DNA of 62,050 bases, counting the filler, from Globobulimina sp. (taxonomy: Eukaryota), in the NCBI GenBank assembly GCA_003354225.1. It is 17 parts of 17 records of this genome, joined end to end, with 100 filler letters (N's around TTAATTAATTAA, not from the genome) between each part and the next. Parts side by side here need not be neighbours in the genome. Positions count along the whole stretch, not along the records: positions 18,297 to 21,853 come from PIVH01002514.1; 16 more parts are not named here. One strand, given 5' to 3'. Below the pieces are notes generated by a model. It saw only the letters and a list, made by a program, of their open reading frames with translations, was not told the origin of the DNA and searched no databases. Position 1 is the first letter of the stretch. Every line of letters starts with the position of its first letter. The position numbers were made by a program, and so were the translations under genes. Of this stretch, positions 3,969 through 54,322 are shown one piece after another.

Positions 3969-5228
3969 ATGAAAAACGTAATAAAATGCAGATGGTTTCC
4001 CTTTATTATAATCACTATGATTGGATTAATAATCACGATGATAAGCACTCAGGATTCAATAAACGTACATTTATTGCCAATAAATAACAAAACTTCTGAT
4101 CAAACTTCTGATGAAACATTAAATTATTTCAACAATATTTTTAAATTTGACAGCAAAAAGCAATCAAATAAAATTGCCGTTGGAATACCAATTCATTGCT
4201 ATGACCTAAAAACAACATTTTATTATATACAACGGAGTCTGTGTCAACATTTATTTTTATCAACAATGATACCTAAAATGTTGTATCTACGATTAACAAA
4301 TTTAAATAATAACCAAACTGACTGTGTTCAATGGGCCAACAAAACCATTTTTGTTGTTGAAAATTTGTTAAATGATATCCGGTATTTCATGAATAAAATA
4401 AATTTATTAAATAACAATAATGAGATGGACCACATTGTAGTTAGCATGGACTTTCGATATGAATCTGTGAATCGAGGCTATAATCGCAACTTCTTTGCAA
4501 ATAAAACAAATAATGATAAAATTCAATATTTCAGCAATTTTGATGCCGATGATATCATACATCCACAAAGAGTGCAAATCATTGACCATGCAATAAATGA
4601 AATTATTATTTATAATAATAAAGGCAATCTGAGCGTAAATTCAGTTATTCTCCATCAATATGACCGAGCTCCGTGCAGACAGCCTCAACAACACATTCTT
4701 TTTAACCAACATGACGACTTATTATCGAATACATATAATTCGACTAAAGTTATGGTACAGTTTCTGTCTCAATGTATTTTATTCAGTAAACATGAGACCT
4801 TTGCAAGCCAACCGACAGTAAGAAAAATGAATAAATTGCAATTTATTTATGAAACAGAATTATTGCAAAATCAAACATTAATTGAATATCAAAAGAAAAC
4901 AAATTGGAATAATTCTATATTGATAATAAAGTCTGCATATTTTTGGAAGTATTACACAAAAAAAATTATTGACATGAAAAATGCACCGTCGCTGCCAAAA
5001 CTGCCAAAAGGTTATTTTTGGAAATATATTCCAAATCAACATTTAAAACCTCATACCGGATGGATAACATCGTCAATGAAAAATTATTATGATACTAATG
5101 GATTCGATAACGACTATTATATGTTGGCAGATGCGCAGTTTTTATTCGACTCCATCACTATGGCTAATCACTCACTTGTTATTATTCCACAACGTTTAGG
5201 AATTTGGTGTTCTGGACCAAGATTCTAA
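3969..5228 (+). CDS. Type II membrane GT-A fold (GT2-like) glycosyltransferase
   Basis: N-terminal TM anchor, IAVGIP strand and DxD motif FDADDIIHPQR. Confidence 0.65.
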   Translation: MKNVIKCRWFPFIIITMIGLIITMISTQDSINVHLLPINNKTSDQTSDETLNYFNNIFKFDSKKQSNKIAVGIPIHCYDLKTTFYYIQRSLCQHLFLSTMIPKMLYLRLTNLNNNQTDCVQWANKTIFVVENLLNDIRYFMNKINLLNNNNEMDHIVVSMDFRYESVNRGYNRNFFANKTNNDKIQYFSNFDADDIIHPQRVQIIDHAINEIIIYNNKGNLSVNSVILHQYDRAPCRQPQQHILFNQHDDLLSNTYNSTKVMVQFLSQCILFSKHETFASQPTVRKMNKLQFIYETELLQNQTLIEYQKKTNWNNSILIIKSAYFWKYYTKKIIDMKNAPSLPKLPKGYFWKYIPNQHLKPHTGWITSSMKNYYDTNGFDNDYYMLADAQFLFDSITMANHSLVIIPQRLGIWCSGPRF

Positions 5229-5390
5229 TCATTTTAAACTTGTTTGTCCACATAATATATATTTTAATGACACTGATTTTAGTCATTTTACTGCAGGTTT
5301 TCAGTTAGAAAGATTTTTTGTAACAAAAGCACGAACAATCAATTAACAAACACACGAAAGTCCCGAAAATATTAATGCACGCATATGATT

Positions 5391-14215: not shown

Positions 14216-14426
14216 TGACTCAGGCAGGATTTAAACCTGCATCCATGTGCATTATAGCCACAACATTGAATTTATAATCAGCAATTGTGTATTGAATATT
14301 GCTAAACAGTGGATGCCTACATCCTAGGCATATTACTCTACGCTTACACGGGGTCTCTTCGCAAGGGAATTGTGGGTGGAACAGCCGAAGCTGCAGACAC
14401 ACGCTCTATTATTGAGCTACTGAGTC
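14216..14426 (-). ncRNA. tRNA-like gene A with a 146-nt insert in place of the anticodon loop
   Basis: Minus strand reads GACTCAG TA GCTC AATAATA GAGC G TGTGT [146 nt] GCACA TGGAT GCAGG TTTAAAT CCTGC CTGAGTC A. All four cloverleaf stems pair. A T5 run lies ~35 nt downstream. Confidence 0.75.
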
Positions 14427-14771
14427 TTAATAAATTATTATTTAATTTATTTTCTTGTTGTTTTTGGTTTCATAAAATCTCATTATTGCATTTGAACTGT
14501 TGCAATATCAATGAATATTAGTTGTGGGACAAACGTGTNNNNNNNNNNNNNNNNNNNNNNNNNNNNNNNNNNNNNNNNNNNNTTAATTAATTAANNNNNN
14601 NNNNNNNNNNNNNNNNNNNNNNNNNNNNNNNNNNNNNNAAACAGTTGTCATAATCAAATATTCATGCAACGAGTAATTGAGTATTTTTCTGACGTTCGCC
14701 CAAATCCTAAGATATTATGGTTGCTGATATGCGGAGCAAACTGCTATGATGAGAAAATCACTTCCAAGACC

Positions 14772-18493: not shown

Positions 18494-19907
18494 ATGGGTC
18501 CCTCCCATATCAGTTATCTGACTCTGCTACGCAGAGGACGATGGCTCGCAACGCTCCGCGTTGCTCCCCGTTCCAAAAATATATTCAATCCAATTATAAA
18601 ATATTTAACTGACACCTTTCATCCATTGAGTTTAAAAATCGATTATGTGAAAAGTGAATCATTCACCGGTTATATTGTCGGATCAGAATTAAATAATATT
18701 ACTGTTGCTGATAAACGCTTGACAGACTATGACAAGAATGACATTGTCAAGCATGGAATCGATGCGGTTGTGGTCATACATCGTCAGCACACAATAAAGT
18801 CGCAGCCGATATCCTGCGTTCATATGAACGAAATAAAGAGTAACAATCCGATGGACTGTCCAATTTATTATACAATGAAAGAAAATTGCGATTTCAACGC
18901 AGAGCATTTAGCGCATTTGAACGAATTTAATCATTTTCTCGATGAATATAATGAAAAAACAATATGTCAATCTAAAGATAAATGTGCTGCATTTATTAGG
19001 CTAGAAAATGGAAGGAATGTGTTGAGCGACCAATGTCATATCAAATTATATCTGCATCCCGCAAGGAAAAGATATATGAAATTGTGGCAGAATGCCAATT
19101 CGCTGATGTTTGAAACAAAAGCAAGGCGAAATCATGTGTTATATATGCCAGTGGCAGGCAGCAACAGTGCTGATTATGATGAGTGGGACGGATATCTGCA
19201 TGTTTTGATCGAGGAAGTAATAGTAAATGGATATCAGTATGACCTATGTCTGCAATGTGCAGTGAATGAGCGCGAGGAATGCAAACATAATATATACGAT
19301 GATAAGTATTCTATATTGACAATGGTCACTGATAAAATGGAATGTCATCGGCATAAAAGCATTGGTAAACCCTTACGAAGGGACCACATGTTATCCTTGA
19401 TACTTTATACAAGTTATTTGACTTTATTTTATGTTATATTTGTAATAATATGCATGTACGTGAATAGATTGTGAGTGTAGTTATGATTTGTGTGGGTCGC
19501 AAAGAAAAGGAGATTATGGTAAATGGAAATGGTTTGATTACTGTTTATGGAATGCCATTGATGAACTATCGAGACGTGAATCTGGTTCGTTTACAGTGTA
19601 TTCAGCAATAAATCGAGTGAAACTCGATAAGAAAAGTGTAGAATGTGGCTATTTTGCGACGTATGTGTCGTCGTCGTGGAATAAAGCGGTTGCGGATAGG
19701 TTTCTGATTAATGGAATGGTCATAGAAATGGATAAAGAGTTTAAAAATAATGCGTTTGTGAGGTGTGCCGATGTATCATGGATTTCAAAATTTGCTGATG
19801 AATTTGAGGTATTATTTGCAAGATCATTGGATTGTAATTCTATGAAGTTTAAATGTGTTGTGTTGAATGAGTCGCACGGAGTACAAACAGTGTCGCTCAA
19901 AAGGTGA
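18494..19907 (+). CDS. Cys/His zinc-finger protein with C-terminal mono-ADP-ribosyltransferase-like domain (5' end uncertain)
   Basis: Intron 19413..19467 joins the two ORFs (ILYT-N-CECSYDLC). Contains ART-like YVSSSW and ISKFADEFEVLF (ExE), plus PBZ-like C..C..H..H clusters. Confidence 0.55.
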
Positions 19908-20172
19908 GAATATGTTCATTGTTTATATATATTTGTGTGGGAATATTGTCTTCTAATTTAATTAGTGAAATCATACCCTTGATGTTAAGAATTGTTATTT
20001 AAAAACTTTTTGTTCAATCCTCCTGATAAACTTTTGGTTGACCACTACTACTGACGCTAACAAAATGTGTAGTGCTAATCTCACGTAAAACAAATGCTTT
20101 TAAAAGACAATATAAGATTAAAAATAATATTGGATTTGGTCTGGTTAGGAATTAAAAATAAATGTATTGAAC

Positions 20173-20392
20173 CGGTTCAGGTGGGATTTTAACCCACATC
20201 CATGTGTGTTGCGTGACAGAATTAATTAAACTGTTTAATAACAGAATAAATTAAACAGAATAACACTGATAAACGCTGGATTTTTTTTGTTTTGTTTTTT
20301 TTTGTATATTTCAATTTTTTTTTTTAGTTGGTTGGTTGGGGGTGCAGCCAAAGCCGCAAGACACACGCTCTAACGAGTTGAGCTACTGAACC
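20173..20392 (-). ncRNA. tRNA-like gene B with a 153-nt insert in place of the anticodon loop
   Basis: Minus strand reads GGTTCAG TA GCTC AACTCGTTA GAGC G TGTGT [153 nt] ACACA TGGAT GTGGG TTAAAAT CCCAC CTGAACC G. All stems pair. A T5 run lies ~16 nt downstream. Homologous to gene A. Confidence 0.75.
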
Positions 20393-20636: not shown

Positions 20637-21839
20637 TTATAATTGGAAATAAAACATGTTATCTTCCAAAGATTTATTAAAACAAAAGGGATTATTTCTG
20701 AGATAAAACCGTTGCATTTGTTGTGATAAAAGACCAGCCCAAACAGGGAATTGTGGAGCCTCCCTCTTTTTGAATAATTCAATTTCATCCAACCATGCTA
20801 CCTCTATATGCTTTGCAAATTGCTCCAATTGGCGGCCCACTGTAAATGCTAAGATTGCCACACCAATCAATGTCAAACATATAGCCACAGCAAATAGCGC
20901 CAATTCATAGACCTCCAATGACTGAAATTCATTAAAATATATGGCTCCCATCAAAGTTGCACCCAATATCAGCAAAACCTGATATATCGGCACCACAAAC
21001 AAAGCGCCTTACAAATCACAATTAATATATATAATATTATCCAATGTCATATTTAATTTATAATACATACCAAAATATGCCAATCCTCTCTGTCGGAAGA
21101 ATTCTAACGATACATTCACGACAATAATACAGACGATCACAACATAAAAATACAAATCTGCCAAGTAACCAACAACAAACGTTGCTATTATGATAACCAT
21201 AGATTTCATAAATAACACATTAATGGCACCAAAGTAGGCAGCCAATGAGACATAAGATATCATCAAATATCTTTTCCCATAAACAATTTCATTCTGTTGC
21301 TTGTCATTAAAGTTCAAGTGTTCATAATATTTAACTCCAATAAAATCAATGACAGCGATCACTGTCAAAATGCAAAAGAATATTATAAATTGAGGCTGTA
21401 GCCAATTATCTATCAATTCACTTATTGTTGGCTCTGTTCCTTGCGATTTGGGCCCAAATATTATAGCCATTATGCTGCCACAAATTACTAATATTATCCC
21501 AATAATATCCTCTTTTTCGAAGGGTTCTCCCAACAATTTTGTGGCTAACAGTGTATTTGCGACGAGCGTCAATGACCCCAATGGAGATACGACTGACTGT
21601 GCGCCCCATTTCAAGGCTGCTGCATTCATCAGGGATCCCGCAATATAAGTTATAAAACCCGATATCCACAAACAATTGCCTGTATATGACTTCTTGTCTT
21701 GTTCGTTTGCAATTGTTTTGTTATGTGCGTTGACTTGATTGTGTCCTTTTTTCTGTATTATATATCCAACTGCTTGGGTTATTGCGCCAAACGAAGCTAA
21801 GATCACAGCAATAAGAAGGTTCTTTGATGCTTCGTCCAT
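20637..21839 (-). CDS. NIPA-family magnesium transporter, 2 exons
   Basis: GYIIQKKG, LWISGF, AALKWGAQSVVSPLGSLTLVAN and VVPIYQV...GAIYFNEF. 63-nt intron 21070..21008. Confidence 0.88.
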
Positions 21840-52264: not shown

Positions 52265-54322
52265 ATGCGCATTTCTGGTCGCTATCGATCAAAAACTCCA
52301 CCACCTCAATCTTCCAATAAATACAAGGAATATAGAAAAAAGAAAAGAGATTTTCCCAAATCTATATTCAATAAAACTGATTTGAAATCGCTTCCGTTCA
52401 TAGTACGTATTATCGGCCATAAAGGACGTAATTATACATTGGATAATCCGTCGATTAATAATTGGTCAAAAAACTTGAAGCGCTCAAAAACCGCTTTCAA
52501 GCAACGTTTATCAAAACATTTTAACAAATTATACAAAAATGATAAACGAGATTCGGAGTTTGAATTGAAAAAAGCATACGATTTTTTAGACATAAATATG
52601 AATCAACACATAAATAATAAGAAACGTAAATGCTTTTTCAATAAAAAATATTACATTTCAAGGCAGAATACAACGAAAGCAGTTCGCGGCATTTTGCGAG
52701 AAATAAAAAAGAACAAATATACCATCATCGAATCGGACAAGAAAATGGGAAGTGTTTATATCGATGTTTGTGTCCTGGACACCGAAGTTCTGAAGTTTTT
52801 GGATGGAAAACAATTCAAAATTGTATATGCATCAGATTTTAGTGTCGCAACCAAAGTCGCTTCGTTTGTCAGAGATATTACATTCAAACATATTAATTAT
52901 TTCCGTGAGATGTGGCAAAATGATCCGATTTATAGAGATTGGCAAAGAATTGATTCGGACGACAAAATATTGCCTCTCCCTAAGATTAGACCGATGATGA
53001 AATTGCACAAAGTCGGCTGGCGATTTATTTTCAATCCCGGCAATTTTTACACATTATTCTTGTCAGTGTATACTGGCAAACTTTTAGATGAAATGTTGAT
53101 GCTTTTCCAAGAAAAAAAGCAGCAATATATAGTATTAAACAATTCATTTGAAGTCATTAACAATTATAAAAAGATCAATATTGCAAACCATCCATTTAAT
53201 ATTACAGATAGATACAGTTTTGACTCCGATGTAGTCGCTTTATATGATTCAATGATTTTGGATCAATGTATTGATATTTTGCAGTATATTCAAGACGATC
53301 TAAATTATAATCCTTTCAAATACCATTTTATGATTGATTGCTTATTATTTTTTAAGGATAATACTTACATTAAATACAAAAATTGGACGCGTAGAATGGT
53401 CATTGGCATTGGAACAGGCACATCGCATTCCGGCCCATTAGCAAATTTATGCTTATATGGATATGAAATTAAGAATTTGAATACCTTTCTTTCCTCAATT
53501 CATTACAAGTCTCTTTGCGATATTCCTTTAAGGAAACGGTATATCGACGATCTTAAAACTATCATCGATATCGATTCTGAACAATTTGGCGATGAAATTG
53601 AGAAATTATGCTATTTAGAACATATATCCATTGCATTAAATGATATCTATCCTAAAAACCTTGTATTAAAAACAAAATATGCGAAAAGATCTATATTTTT
53701 GGACATGTATACAATTATTTGTCATCAAACCAATACAATCGTATCATTTATGCATGAAAAACCATTAAATTTACATATTAATTTACATTTTAATTCAAAT
53801 AATCCATTCAATCAAAAAGAATGTATATTCTTTTCTTTTCTGTTTAGATCCATTTGTTTGAATGATAGCGAATTAAAACACAAATCGTTTACAAAGAAAT
53901 TGATAAAAAGAATGTTAAACAGAGATTTTCCGGCCGTCGTAATTAGGAAAATACTCAAAAACCGTAAACTACCACAATATATTAATCGTGATAAATATTT
54001 GGAAAAATTAGAAAGTAATCGATTACAGAAATATTATCGGAATTTTTTGAAAATATACGATGAAAATATGTGGGGCCAAGATAAATTTTTAGAAGATGAA
54101 ATCTGGCAAAATTTAATCGAAAAATATTCAGAAGAAACGGACGACGATGACATTAAAACGATTTATTTCAAGAAAGTGTATCAACAGTTATTCGATGATG
54201 ATAATCGATTTAGAGATATTTTAAAACAATTTAAAAGTATATTACCTATTGATTTTGCAGAAAAGATTAAGCTCTCTATTTGCAATAAAACAGAAGATAA
54301 ACTCATGAGATATCTAAATTAA
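52265..54322 (+). CDS. Penelope-type reverse transcriptase
   Basis: ESDKKMG, KLHK..WRFI, DVVALYDSM, GIGTGTSHSGPLANL, RYIDD, IFLDM and thumb motif HEKP...LHFNSNNP...NRDFP. Confidence 0.88.
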   Translation: MRISGRYRSKTPPPQSSNKYKEYRKKKRDFPKSIFNKTDLKSLPFIVRIIGHKGRNYTLDNPSINNWSKNLKRSKTAFKQRLSKHFNKLYKNDKRDSEFELKKAYDFLDINMNQHINNKKRKCFFNKKYYISRQNTTKAVRGILREIKKNKYTIIESDKKMGSVYIDVCVLDTEVLKFLDGKQFKIVYASDFSVATKVASFVRDITFKHINYFREMWQNDPIYRDWQRIDSDDKILPLPKIRPMMKLHKVGWRFIFNPGNFYTLFLSVYTGKLLDEMLMLFQEKKQQYIVLNNSFEVINNYKKINIANHPFNITDRYSFDSDVVALYDSMILDQCIDILQYIQDDLNYNPFKYHFMIDCLLFFKDNTYIKYKNWTRRMVIGIGTGTSHSGPLANLCLYGYEIKNLNTFLSSIHYKSLCDIPLRKRYIDDLKTIIDIDSEQFGDEIEKLCYLEHISIALNDIYPKNLVLKTKYAKRSIFLDMYTIICHQTNTIVSFMHEKPLNLHINLHFNSNNPFNQKECIFFSFLFRSICLNDSELKHKSFTKKLIKRMLNRDFPAVVIRKILKNRKLPQYINRDKYLEKLESNRLQKYYRNFLKIYDENMWGQDKFLEDEIWQNLIEKYSEETDDDDIKTIYFKKVYQQLFDDDNRFRDILKQFKSILPIDFAEKIKLSICNKTEDKLMRYLN

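Follow-up and report, generated by a model that had tools for sequence, protein, structure and literature searches.

A tRNA-derived RNA family with a long structured insert in the anticodon loop in Globobulimina sp. and on other eukaryotic contigs

The stretch of DNA analysed here (the window), 62,050 nucleotides (nt) of the Globobulimina sp. assembly GCA_003354225.1, is nuclear DNA of a gene-dense, AT-rich (33% GC) eukaryote and encodes a GH31 glucosidase, an FMO-like oxidoreductase, and a NIPA transporter. On its minus strand, at 20173-20392, lies an element that we call B, a full tRNA cloverleaf with its anticodon loop split by a 146-nt insert, and the window holds a second copy, A (Table 1). 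When introns are allowed, ARAGORN makes a call at precisely c[20173,20392], a tRNA of 74 nt that carries the 146-nt insert, and the cloverleaf fold of the B strand has a z-score of -4.2, with 0 of 200 shuffles as good. We conclude with high confidence that B is real, expressed, and under selection, that its scaffold is a tRNA derivative, and that its family is found on several unrelated eukaryotic contigs. B does not look like an ordinary decoding tRNA.

An earlier note on this DNA had matched the element to no known family and proposed it as a candidate for an undescribed family of structured RNA. For the scaffold this proposal has to be given up, since an existing model explains it: the Rfam tRNA model RF00005 fits B end to end, at model positions 1-71, with 44.9 bits and an E-value of 1.4e-8 (cut-off 29; relaxed speed filters), and thus the scaffold is a tRNA derivative and not a separate fold. 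The same model scores six relatives of B at 35.6-45.8 bits and 33 canonical tRNAs on the relatives' contigs at 56.9-72.3 bits. On copy A it gives only a partial 17.8-bit alignment, a full-length alignment not being found, and 5 of the 11 complete elements on the relatives' contigs go unreported by RF00005 at E <= 0.01. ARAGORN with its default settings, Rfam at its gathering threshold, and Rfam by E-value over the whole window returned 0 matches each, which we ascribe to the effect of filters and insert length and not to absence, and B therefore looks unannotated and is invisible to routine annotation. At relaxed thresholds, ARAGORN makes 133-265 calls in the window, which are noise.

Models and motifs of other RNA classes were also compared with the two copies. 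On A and B, neither Intron_gpI nor the Vault (RF00006) and Y RNA models gave a match at E <= 10; group I introns are not known to be as small as the 117-172 nt spanned by the inserts of this family, and RF00006 is a vertebrate-centred model, so a functional analogy to vault RNA may still hold. By eye, A and B have no box C/D, H/ACA, Sm, or U6/U4-like motifs, and Rfam matches of the two copies to such classes are at noise level only. Searches for primer-binding-site and antisense targets of the element within the window returned self matches only. A telomerase-template role for the C/A-rich tract of the insert was rejected because the tracts differ among paralogs of one genome. Full-text searches of the open-access literature yielded no account of a family of this kind.

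The member set comprises 14 complete elements, used for all alignment statistics, and four partial ones (L016, L021, L048, and L076). In the 14-member alignment, 26 pairs of the cloverleaf and of the hairpin that opens the insert (H1) were tested; 97.5% of the cells are paired, and 18 pairs show changes on both sides, in 41 cells. None of 500 shuffles reached the observed pairing values, and in a control in which partners were slid by 1-3 columns, pairing was 24-53%. Pairs of the acceptor, D, H1, and T stems are never broken in any of the 14 sequences: H1 is 100% paired in every member, with both-side changes at four of its five pairs, and the D stem, invariant in 13 members, is changed in a compensatory manner to TCTC/GAGA in L047. 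Among tertiary contacts, U8-A14 and A15-U48 are present in 14/14, and 19:56 is Watson-Crick in 11 members (U-A in three, A-U in six, and G-C in two). The view of the earlier note that A and B are homologous copies of a structured RNA family selected for an L shape is thus borne out in a larger alignment, and it is better founded than it could be from two sequences.

The two copies of the window illustrate this pattern on a small scale. As the earlier note had read them, the differences in the acceptor stem are compensatory, 2:71 being G-C in B and A-U in A and 3:70 being U-A in B and C-G in A, and the same is true of the T stem, in which 50:64 is U-A in B and C-G in A, and 51:63 is G-C and A-U, respectively. 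The reported swap at the elbow is also present, with T-loop position 56 being A in B and T in A, opposite T and A at the third-from-last position of the D loop, and A15-U48 is kept in both copies. Likewise, B has the opening hairpin GCGGC-TTTG-GCTGC with a C-rich tract after it, the nominal anticodon TGC in its own numbering, and U3-A70 in place of G3:U70. Other statements call for correction: the inserts are 146 nt in B and 139 nt in A, and the lengths of 153 and 146 nt once given are obtained only when loop nucleotides are counted; moreover, to call the rest of the inserts unrelated was too strong, as a central block, TCCAGCGTTTAT in B and CCACTGTTT in A, aligns across the family. Copy A has acceptor strands GACTCAG and CTGAGTC, T-stem strands GCAGG and CCTGC, H1 GCAGC-TTCG-GCTGT, tract TCCACCCACAATTCCC, motif AATGTTGTGG, junction ATAAT, T loop TTTAAAT, and discriminator A.

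Inserts across the family follow a common plan. Each begins with C32 U33, to which B adds one extra U, followed from nucleotide 34 by a hairpin of 5-6 bp with a UUCG loop in 10 of the 14 members; after the hairpin come, in the same order in all members, a C/A-rich tract, a variable middle, and the central block (consensus AACUGUUUG). Most members have a G/U-rich block late in the insert, and an R-Y-A-R-Y linker leads to the anticodon stem in 14/14. The C/A tract can pair with the G/U-rich insert end in 8 of 13 tested members (z <= -1.9), B not being among the eight, and in L001, L007, and L009 the central block is the base of a long 3' hairpin with a compensatory change. The idea of variable cargo, put forward in the earlier note, applies to the middle of the insert, which does vary, but not to the 5' hairpin, the C/A tract, the central motif, or the 3' junction, all of which are conserved.

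T runs of four or more are rare within the inserts, with 3 on the sense strand of all 14 versus 21 A runs, and are present ~10-45 nt downstream of 11 members, the other three having a tRNA-Arg gene directly after them. Judged from sequence, this distribution would fit Pol III (RNA polymerase III) transcription of the whole unit, with the enzyme reading through the insert, and Pol III is most likely the polymerase that transcribes the B family.

Table 1. Positions in the window of the parts of element B, of the T run downstream of it, and of copy A
Feature	Position	Strand	Evidence and remarks
B acceptor stem, 5' strand, GGTTCAG	20386-20392	(-)	ARAGORN, Rfam; 7/7 acceptor pairs covary in 14 members
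B D arm, GCTC / AACTCGTTA / GAGC	20367-20383	(-)	A-box-like TAGCTCAA inside; G18, U at 19
B anticodon stem, 5' strand, TGTGT	20361-20365	(-)	Partner strand is 20203-20207
B CTT, then hairpin H1, GCGGC-TTTG-GCTGC	20344-20360	(-)	Nominal anticodon buried in H1; fold and alignment
B C/A-rich tract, ACCCCCAACCAACCAACT	20326-20343	(-)	Such a tract follows H1 in every member
B mid-insert, A-rich, weakly conserved	20281-20325	(-)	Contains A11, A9, and A8; T runs >=4 absent
B central conserved block, TCCAGCGTTTAT	20269-20280	(-)	Alignment; family consensus AACTGTTTG
B insert, 3' part, ending in junction motif GCAAC	20208-20268	(-)	R-Y-A-R-Y in 14/14
B 3' half	20173-20207	(-)	ACACA, variable loop TGGAT (5 nt), B-box-like T arm GTGGG/TTAAAAT/CCCAC, CTGAACC, discriminator G
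T5 run, TTATTTTTAA, Pol III terminator-like	20148-20154	(-)	~20 nt downstream of B; read from sequence
Copy A	14216-14426	(-)	14217-14426 without the discriminator; same architecture as B

Mapping the family beyond the window, we found it conserved in several eukaryotes that are distantly related; besides A and B, no fewer than 12 complete relatives from elsewhere are members. A family model, R1, scores 15 members at 56.8-89.5 bits (copy A at 80.5 bits) and ordinary tRNAs at no more than 38.8 bits; in the 62-kb window it finds A and B and no third copy. A metagenome search with a 20-base pattern of the shared 5' half gave 21 loci, seven of the family, 11 ordinary tRNAs, and three unclear, and two of the seven family-bearing contigs have a second, more divergent copy. 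In the collection of prokaryote genomes, the hairpin pattern gave 20 loci, 16 of them chance matches in GC-rich bacteria and four of them family members, the latter on ~31% GC contigs of the record 'MAG: Gammaproteobacteria bacterium isolate Glo_16' (G001). Searching the whole of this record with the family model added two contigs, one of which, L047, has a B-type copy with the acceptor stem and T loop of B. Many contigs of G001 are under 3 kb, have 29-38% GC, and carry eukaryote-type tRNA genes along with family elements (the small contigs concerned are L043-L048, L058, and L075-L088); because of these eukaryote-style tRNA genes we take the contigs as eukaryotic, and the G001 bin probably holds eukaryotic contamination. 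Longer member contigs have eukaryotic neighbour genes (PX, P450, DEP, and amidase), and the relatives' contigs have no DNA in common with the window outside the element. In the viral collection, the patterns matched 1 and 3 loci, none of which is a family member. One partial member, L021:5399-5473, has the 5' half of the family (80.8 bits on R1) with no 3' half downstream on the contig, where an open reading frame (ORF) at 4448-5263 sits in its place; it is probably a truncated copy.

The relatives are hosted by clusters of small-RNA genes. In L001 and L007 the order is signal recognition particle (SRP) RNA, element, tRNA-Arg, and tRNA-Sec, with U2 next in L001, and this order, with tRNA-Arg(CCG), is kept in L001:1-989, L007:5-655, and L009:687-1081; from this order it follows that the organisms use selenocysteine and group their small-RNA genes. 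L002:1-3869 packs a 5S rRNA gene, 29 canonical tRNA genes, and one element, spaced ~20-100 nt apart, into 3.9 kb, an unusually dense, eukaryote-type array with Tyr and Asn among the missing isoacceptors. Ordinary tRNA-Cys, His, Ala, and Arg genes lie beside the element of L002, and the elements have no close parent among the canonical tRNAs of L002. L035 and L038 have a weak U3-like match nearby. The small-RNA cluster context fits a housekeeping Pol III gene, be it a tRNA mimic or an intron-bearing tRNA.

None of the runs X2, X6, and X7 is recorded as RNA, and their data are assembled contigs; we treat them as RNA because the contigs skip spliceosomal introns (GT..AG) in the mRNAs of the genes flanking B, at 19413-19467 (55 nt) and 21007-21069 (63 nt). 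The ORF list of the window under-calls exon structure, as seen at these skipped introns beside B. Summed contig depth, a poor measure of level, is 113940, 6012, and 3504 in X2, X6, and X7, respectively, over 20082-20200, and 473713, 4847, and 3197 over 20201-20319, and about 20-300 over the flanking genes. Depth in the bin of the 5' exon is low (601, 0, and 0 versus thousands further 3') and is not used as evidence; a low-complexity A tract, a filter, or modifications that block reverse transcription may be responsible. Two RNA-type contigs stop at 20174 against adapter, and one of them first carries a non-templated ACC where the window has GGT, which looks like discriminator A plus CC(A). These defined 3' ends at nucleotide 72 and the single ACC lend partial support to tRNA-like end processing. 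Among the joints listed for the contigs, none passes over the insert, to which we give no weight, as assembled contigs cannot show absence. Nor is a back-joint of the insert among them, the one back-joint listed being due to wrapping in the assembly of the DNA run X1.

Contigs with loose ends show that the RNA of relatives extends into the insert, with an indel of ~28 nt. The insert of B has a local tandem duplication around 'acagaataa' (window 20216-20256), and at the same positions ~25-28 nt are missing from X2 and X6 contigs of related organisms; thus, the insert changes by indels between close relatives. DNA contigs of X1 match the 3' or the 5' exon of B and then diverge (window 20206 and 20357-20392), which indicates further copies, and one of the contigs runs into 30 bases identical to the insert end of L047.

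Elsewhere in the window, from 3562 to 58498, pairs of 44-N blocks set 12 bases apart recur every ~3657 bases, giving 32 blocks (e.g., 14539-14582 and 14595-14638), which look like regular masking and not assembly gaps. A 685-amino-acid ORF at 52265-54322 (+) has no Pfam match; by language-model features it resembles clusters of hypothetical proteins, commonest in Rotifera, some with HTH_animal or reverse-transcriptase domains, and it is possibly related to a mobile element. The NIPA protein encoded near B has its closest relative, at 74% identity, in a protist-oriented collection, the only source from which that relative is known.

Our preferred reading, to which we give a probability of roughly 45%, is that the B family is a tRNA-derived Pol III RNA that does not decode and in which the insert is retained. 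The A/B-box-like D and T arms would drive transcription to the downstream T run, and the tRNA body would recruit end-processing enzymes that take the trailer off and put CCA on. An insert-bearing RNA of ~200-220 nt would then accumulate as the stable product, without being spliced to a decoding tRNA. In this product the acceptor, D, anticodon, and T stems would be kept together with U8-A14, A15-U48, and 19:56, and a domain of 117-172 nt would replace the anticodon loop, with a stable hairpin taking in nucleotides 34-37, a C/A strand mostly pairable with the G/U strand, and the R-Y-A-R-Y linker. Our guess is that such an RNA might act as a tRNA-mimicking scaffold or decoy, with the conserved three-way junction as its working surface. 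In its fullest form, which we offer tentatively and at less than even odds, the proposal is an undescribed class of abundant Pol III RNA in which a CCA-tailed tRNA body has its anticodon loop permanently replaced by a three-way-junction domain and, being unable to decode, serves as a tRNA-mimicking RNP scaffold or as a decoy for factors that bind tRNA.

The features by which a tRNA decodes argue for this reading. Nucleotides 34-36 are GCA in eight of the 14 members, GCG in four, and GTG and ATG in one each, with H1 pairing kept by compensatory changes, so the nominal anticodon is indeed unconserved, as the earlier note had proposed. B and L047 share acceptor stem and T loop and yet differ at 34-36, and L015 has an A-type acceptor stem and yet reads GCG. 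The discriminator is A in ten members, G in two, and T in two, and within one genome, four members with otherwise identical exons (L032, L035, L038, and L039) have A, A, G, and T. Position 31:39 is unpaired in 9/14, G18G19 is found in 2/14, and the canonical T54-T55-C56-R57-A58 T loop is found in 4/14. Decoding tRNAs share an elbow of G18, G19, T54, Psi55, C56, and A58, and B has G18 but U19 and A56. The identity set of tRNA-Ala is G3:U70 and A73, and B, with U3-A70 and G73, is without these marks. With the anticodon buried and the discriminator and elbow drifting, the RNA would be unable to serve as a normal adaptor.

A number of points weigh against a non-decoding RNA that keeps its insert. 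By base rate, an interrupted anticodon loop with a fit to the tRNA model is, in eukaryotes, normally an intron-containing tRNA gene, and PMC10485636 describes base pairing between the anticodon and the intervening sequence as a pre-tRNA hallmark. Conserved ends with a free middle are equally expected of a spliced intron, and identical-exon paralogs with differing inserts are typical of tRNA gene families. When the insert is removed in silico, ARAGORN accepts 12 of the 14 sequences as tRNAs. As for the RNA data, a 57-nt contig with a depth of 2478 covers 20183-20231, joining 26 nt of 3' exon to 23 nt of insert, and with 26 and 23 letters it is below the bridging threshold of 31 letters per side; the ACC tail comes from a single contig, and from a relative; and contigs, besides measuring level poorly, cannot show the absence of a spliced form. 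In yeast, moreover, end-matured, CCA-bearing, intron-containing pre-tRNAs are normal intermediates, and mature tRNAs are under-represented in standard RNA-seq.

These points lead to the alternative that survives best, namely that the members are intron-containing tRNA genes with an intron of 117-172 nt at or near 37/38, which is cut by TSEN and whose exons are ligated to a ~74-nt, perhaps specialised tRNA. We regard it as a real possibility, if a somewhat doubtful one. It is favoured by the Rfam tRNA matches and ARAGORN calls, by the position of the elements within tRNA and small-RNA gene clusters, by the ARAGORN-acceptable products of insert removal, and by the recurrence of GCA in all eight members whose bodies are nearly identical. 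An RNA that bears the insert and has its 3' end trimmed and a CCA-type tail would fit a normal splicing intermediate, and the insert lies in the anticodon loop with nucleotides 34-37 paired to it, as PMC10485636 describes for pre-tRNAs. It is also in its favour that a cut set at 36/37 leaves a purine at position 37 in 14/14. ARAGORN puts the insert at 35/36 or 36/37, and a 37/38 placement is possible, with boundaries judged from DNA alone.

The known substrate rules, however, are hard to reconcile with it. According to PMC10485636 and PMC6614914, eukaryotic tRNA introns follow nucleotide 37 and precede nucleotide 38, the helix between anticodon and intron is stacked on the anticodon stem, and its proximal base pair, beside a 3-nt bulge where the 3' cut is made, is both conserved and critical. 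All 14 members have C at nucleotide 32 and U or C at position -3 of the canonical 3' cut, and thus formation of the proximal base pair is impossible in every one of them, and the canonical 5' cut would lie within the covarying H1. Inspection of folds and junctions, without a dedicated search, revealed no bulge-helix-bulge of the archaeal type (4-bp helix with two 3-nt bulges at the cut sites). An anticodon-intron helix with a distal GUUGUGG motif was also considered and dropped; by eye, the A-type members and L002 allow it, and the remaining members do not.

The decoding features, too, are difficult for an intron-bearing tRNA. The anticodons GCG and AUG are not known to be used by eukaryotic cytosolic tRNAs, and the members with GCA have A73 in place of U73, the identity mark of tRNA-Cys; discriminators of A/A/G/T in identical-exon paralogs, a 31:39 pair broken in nine members, and the loss of elbow invariants in most members point the same way. 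Insert blocks are conserved between otherwise unrelated contigs, which is unexpected of ordinary tRNA introns, and the family occurs alongside normal tRNAs with short introns and alongside ordinary isoacceptors. One example is the tRNA-Tyr of the genome from which four members come, a textbook case with C1-G72 and an intron of 11 nt. If the anticodon is read from the 3' side, with a cut at 34/35, it becomes GTA or GCA, and identical-bodied paralogs would be Tyr and Cys; this cut was rejected because of that clash and because of the normal tRNA-Tyr in the same genome.

A further alternative comes close to the L-shaped RNA carrying cargo of the earlier note: the tRNA body would be a processing chassis, and the insert, excised by the splicing machinery, would be the functional product, linear or circular. 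Sequence and structure are conserved inside the insert and summed contig depth over it is high, and tRNA intronic circular RNAs (tricRNAs) show that stable products of tRNA introns are possible (PMC4536317 and PMC6614914). It is the scaffold and the junction-proximal ends that are most conserved, however, and not the interior cargo, and the high-depth contigs continue from the insert to the 3' exon. As the only back-joint listed is the assembly wrap of X1 and the splice-site objections to an intron apply here too, we consider this explanation unlikely. Least probable by far is a decaying tRNA pseudogene, a copy of a tRNA-derived short interspersed nuclear element (SINE), or a chance fold, which would account for tRNA-model scores under those of canonical tRNAs, for several copies per genome with truncated ones among them (L021), and for X1 DNA contigs that diverge from B at both 5' exon ends, but which is opposed by compensatory change in 18 of 26 pairs with acceptor, D, H1, and T pairs never broken, by a family kept across unrelated contigs and transcript-like contigs at high depth, by the lack of a poly-A or simple-repeat tail and of a target-site duplication in the sequence around A and B, and, for a SINE, by two copies in 62 kb with no third, by covarying stems, and by a 3' tRNA half that is complete.

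If the RNA is mature with its insert in place, as in the reading that we prefer, some eukaryotes have a conserved, highly expressed, and uncatalogued tRNA mimic, and it would offer a new way to ask how non-decoding RNAs share the factors of tRNA processing, export, and surveillance. Should the insert be spliced instead, it would be among the longest known eukaryotic tRNA introns, with a structure conserved across distant taxa, and, lacking the pair thought critical for TSEN, it would challenge the substrate rules. Under either reading, annotations of such genomes miss these genes, as standard tRNA finders and Rfam scans skip the family (0 matches at default settings).

Compared with canonical intron-containing tRNA genes, the B family is alike in its cloverleaf recognised by RF00005, in the interruption of the anticodon loop, in the pairing of the anticodon with the intervening sequence, and in its A/B-box-like D and T arms, downstream T run, and tRNA gene neighbours. 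It differs in an insert of 117-172 nt, set against the 11-nt intron of tRNA-Tyr in the same organism, and in having no possible proximal pair with a 3-nt bulge in any of the 14 members. Its anticodon, moreover, is paired within a closed hairpin to the nearer end of the insert and not to the farther one, and anticodon, discriminator, 31:39, and elbow are unconserved while insert blocks are conserved across distant contigs.

The pre-tRNAs that give rise to animal tricRNAs resemble the family in having a long structured intervening sequence within a Pol III tRNA gene and abundant RNA derived from it, the long intron of Drosophila tRNA:Tyr being ~113 nt. Their hosts, unlike B, are ordinary decoding tRNAs with a conserved C-G proximal pair, according to PMC6614914. 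Also unlike tricRNAs, the B family has no back-splice joint listed, and its high-depth contigs reach the 3' exon. Vault and Y RNAs are likewise small, abundant Pol III RNAs, and vault RNAs have internal promoter boxes similar to those of tRNA genes, 5' and 3' ends that pair with each other, and a middle that varies; both, however, are without the full covarying cloverleaf, the tertiary pairs, and the CCA-type end of the B family. Tried likewise for comparison, mascRNA (MALAT1), bacterial YrlA, and tmRNA are tRNA-like modules processed by RNase P, RNase Z, and the CCA-adding enzyme, each a tRNA mimic in end processing without decoding. Yet mascRNA derives from a Pol II transcript as a small by-product, in YrlA the topology is reversed and the tRNA-like part lies inside, and tmRNA has no D or anticodon stem, carries G3:U70, and encodes a tag, and in none of the three is the anticodon loop replaced by a three-way junction, as is proposed for the B family.

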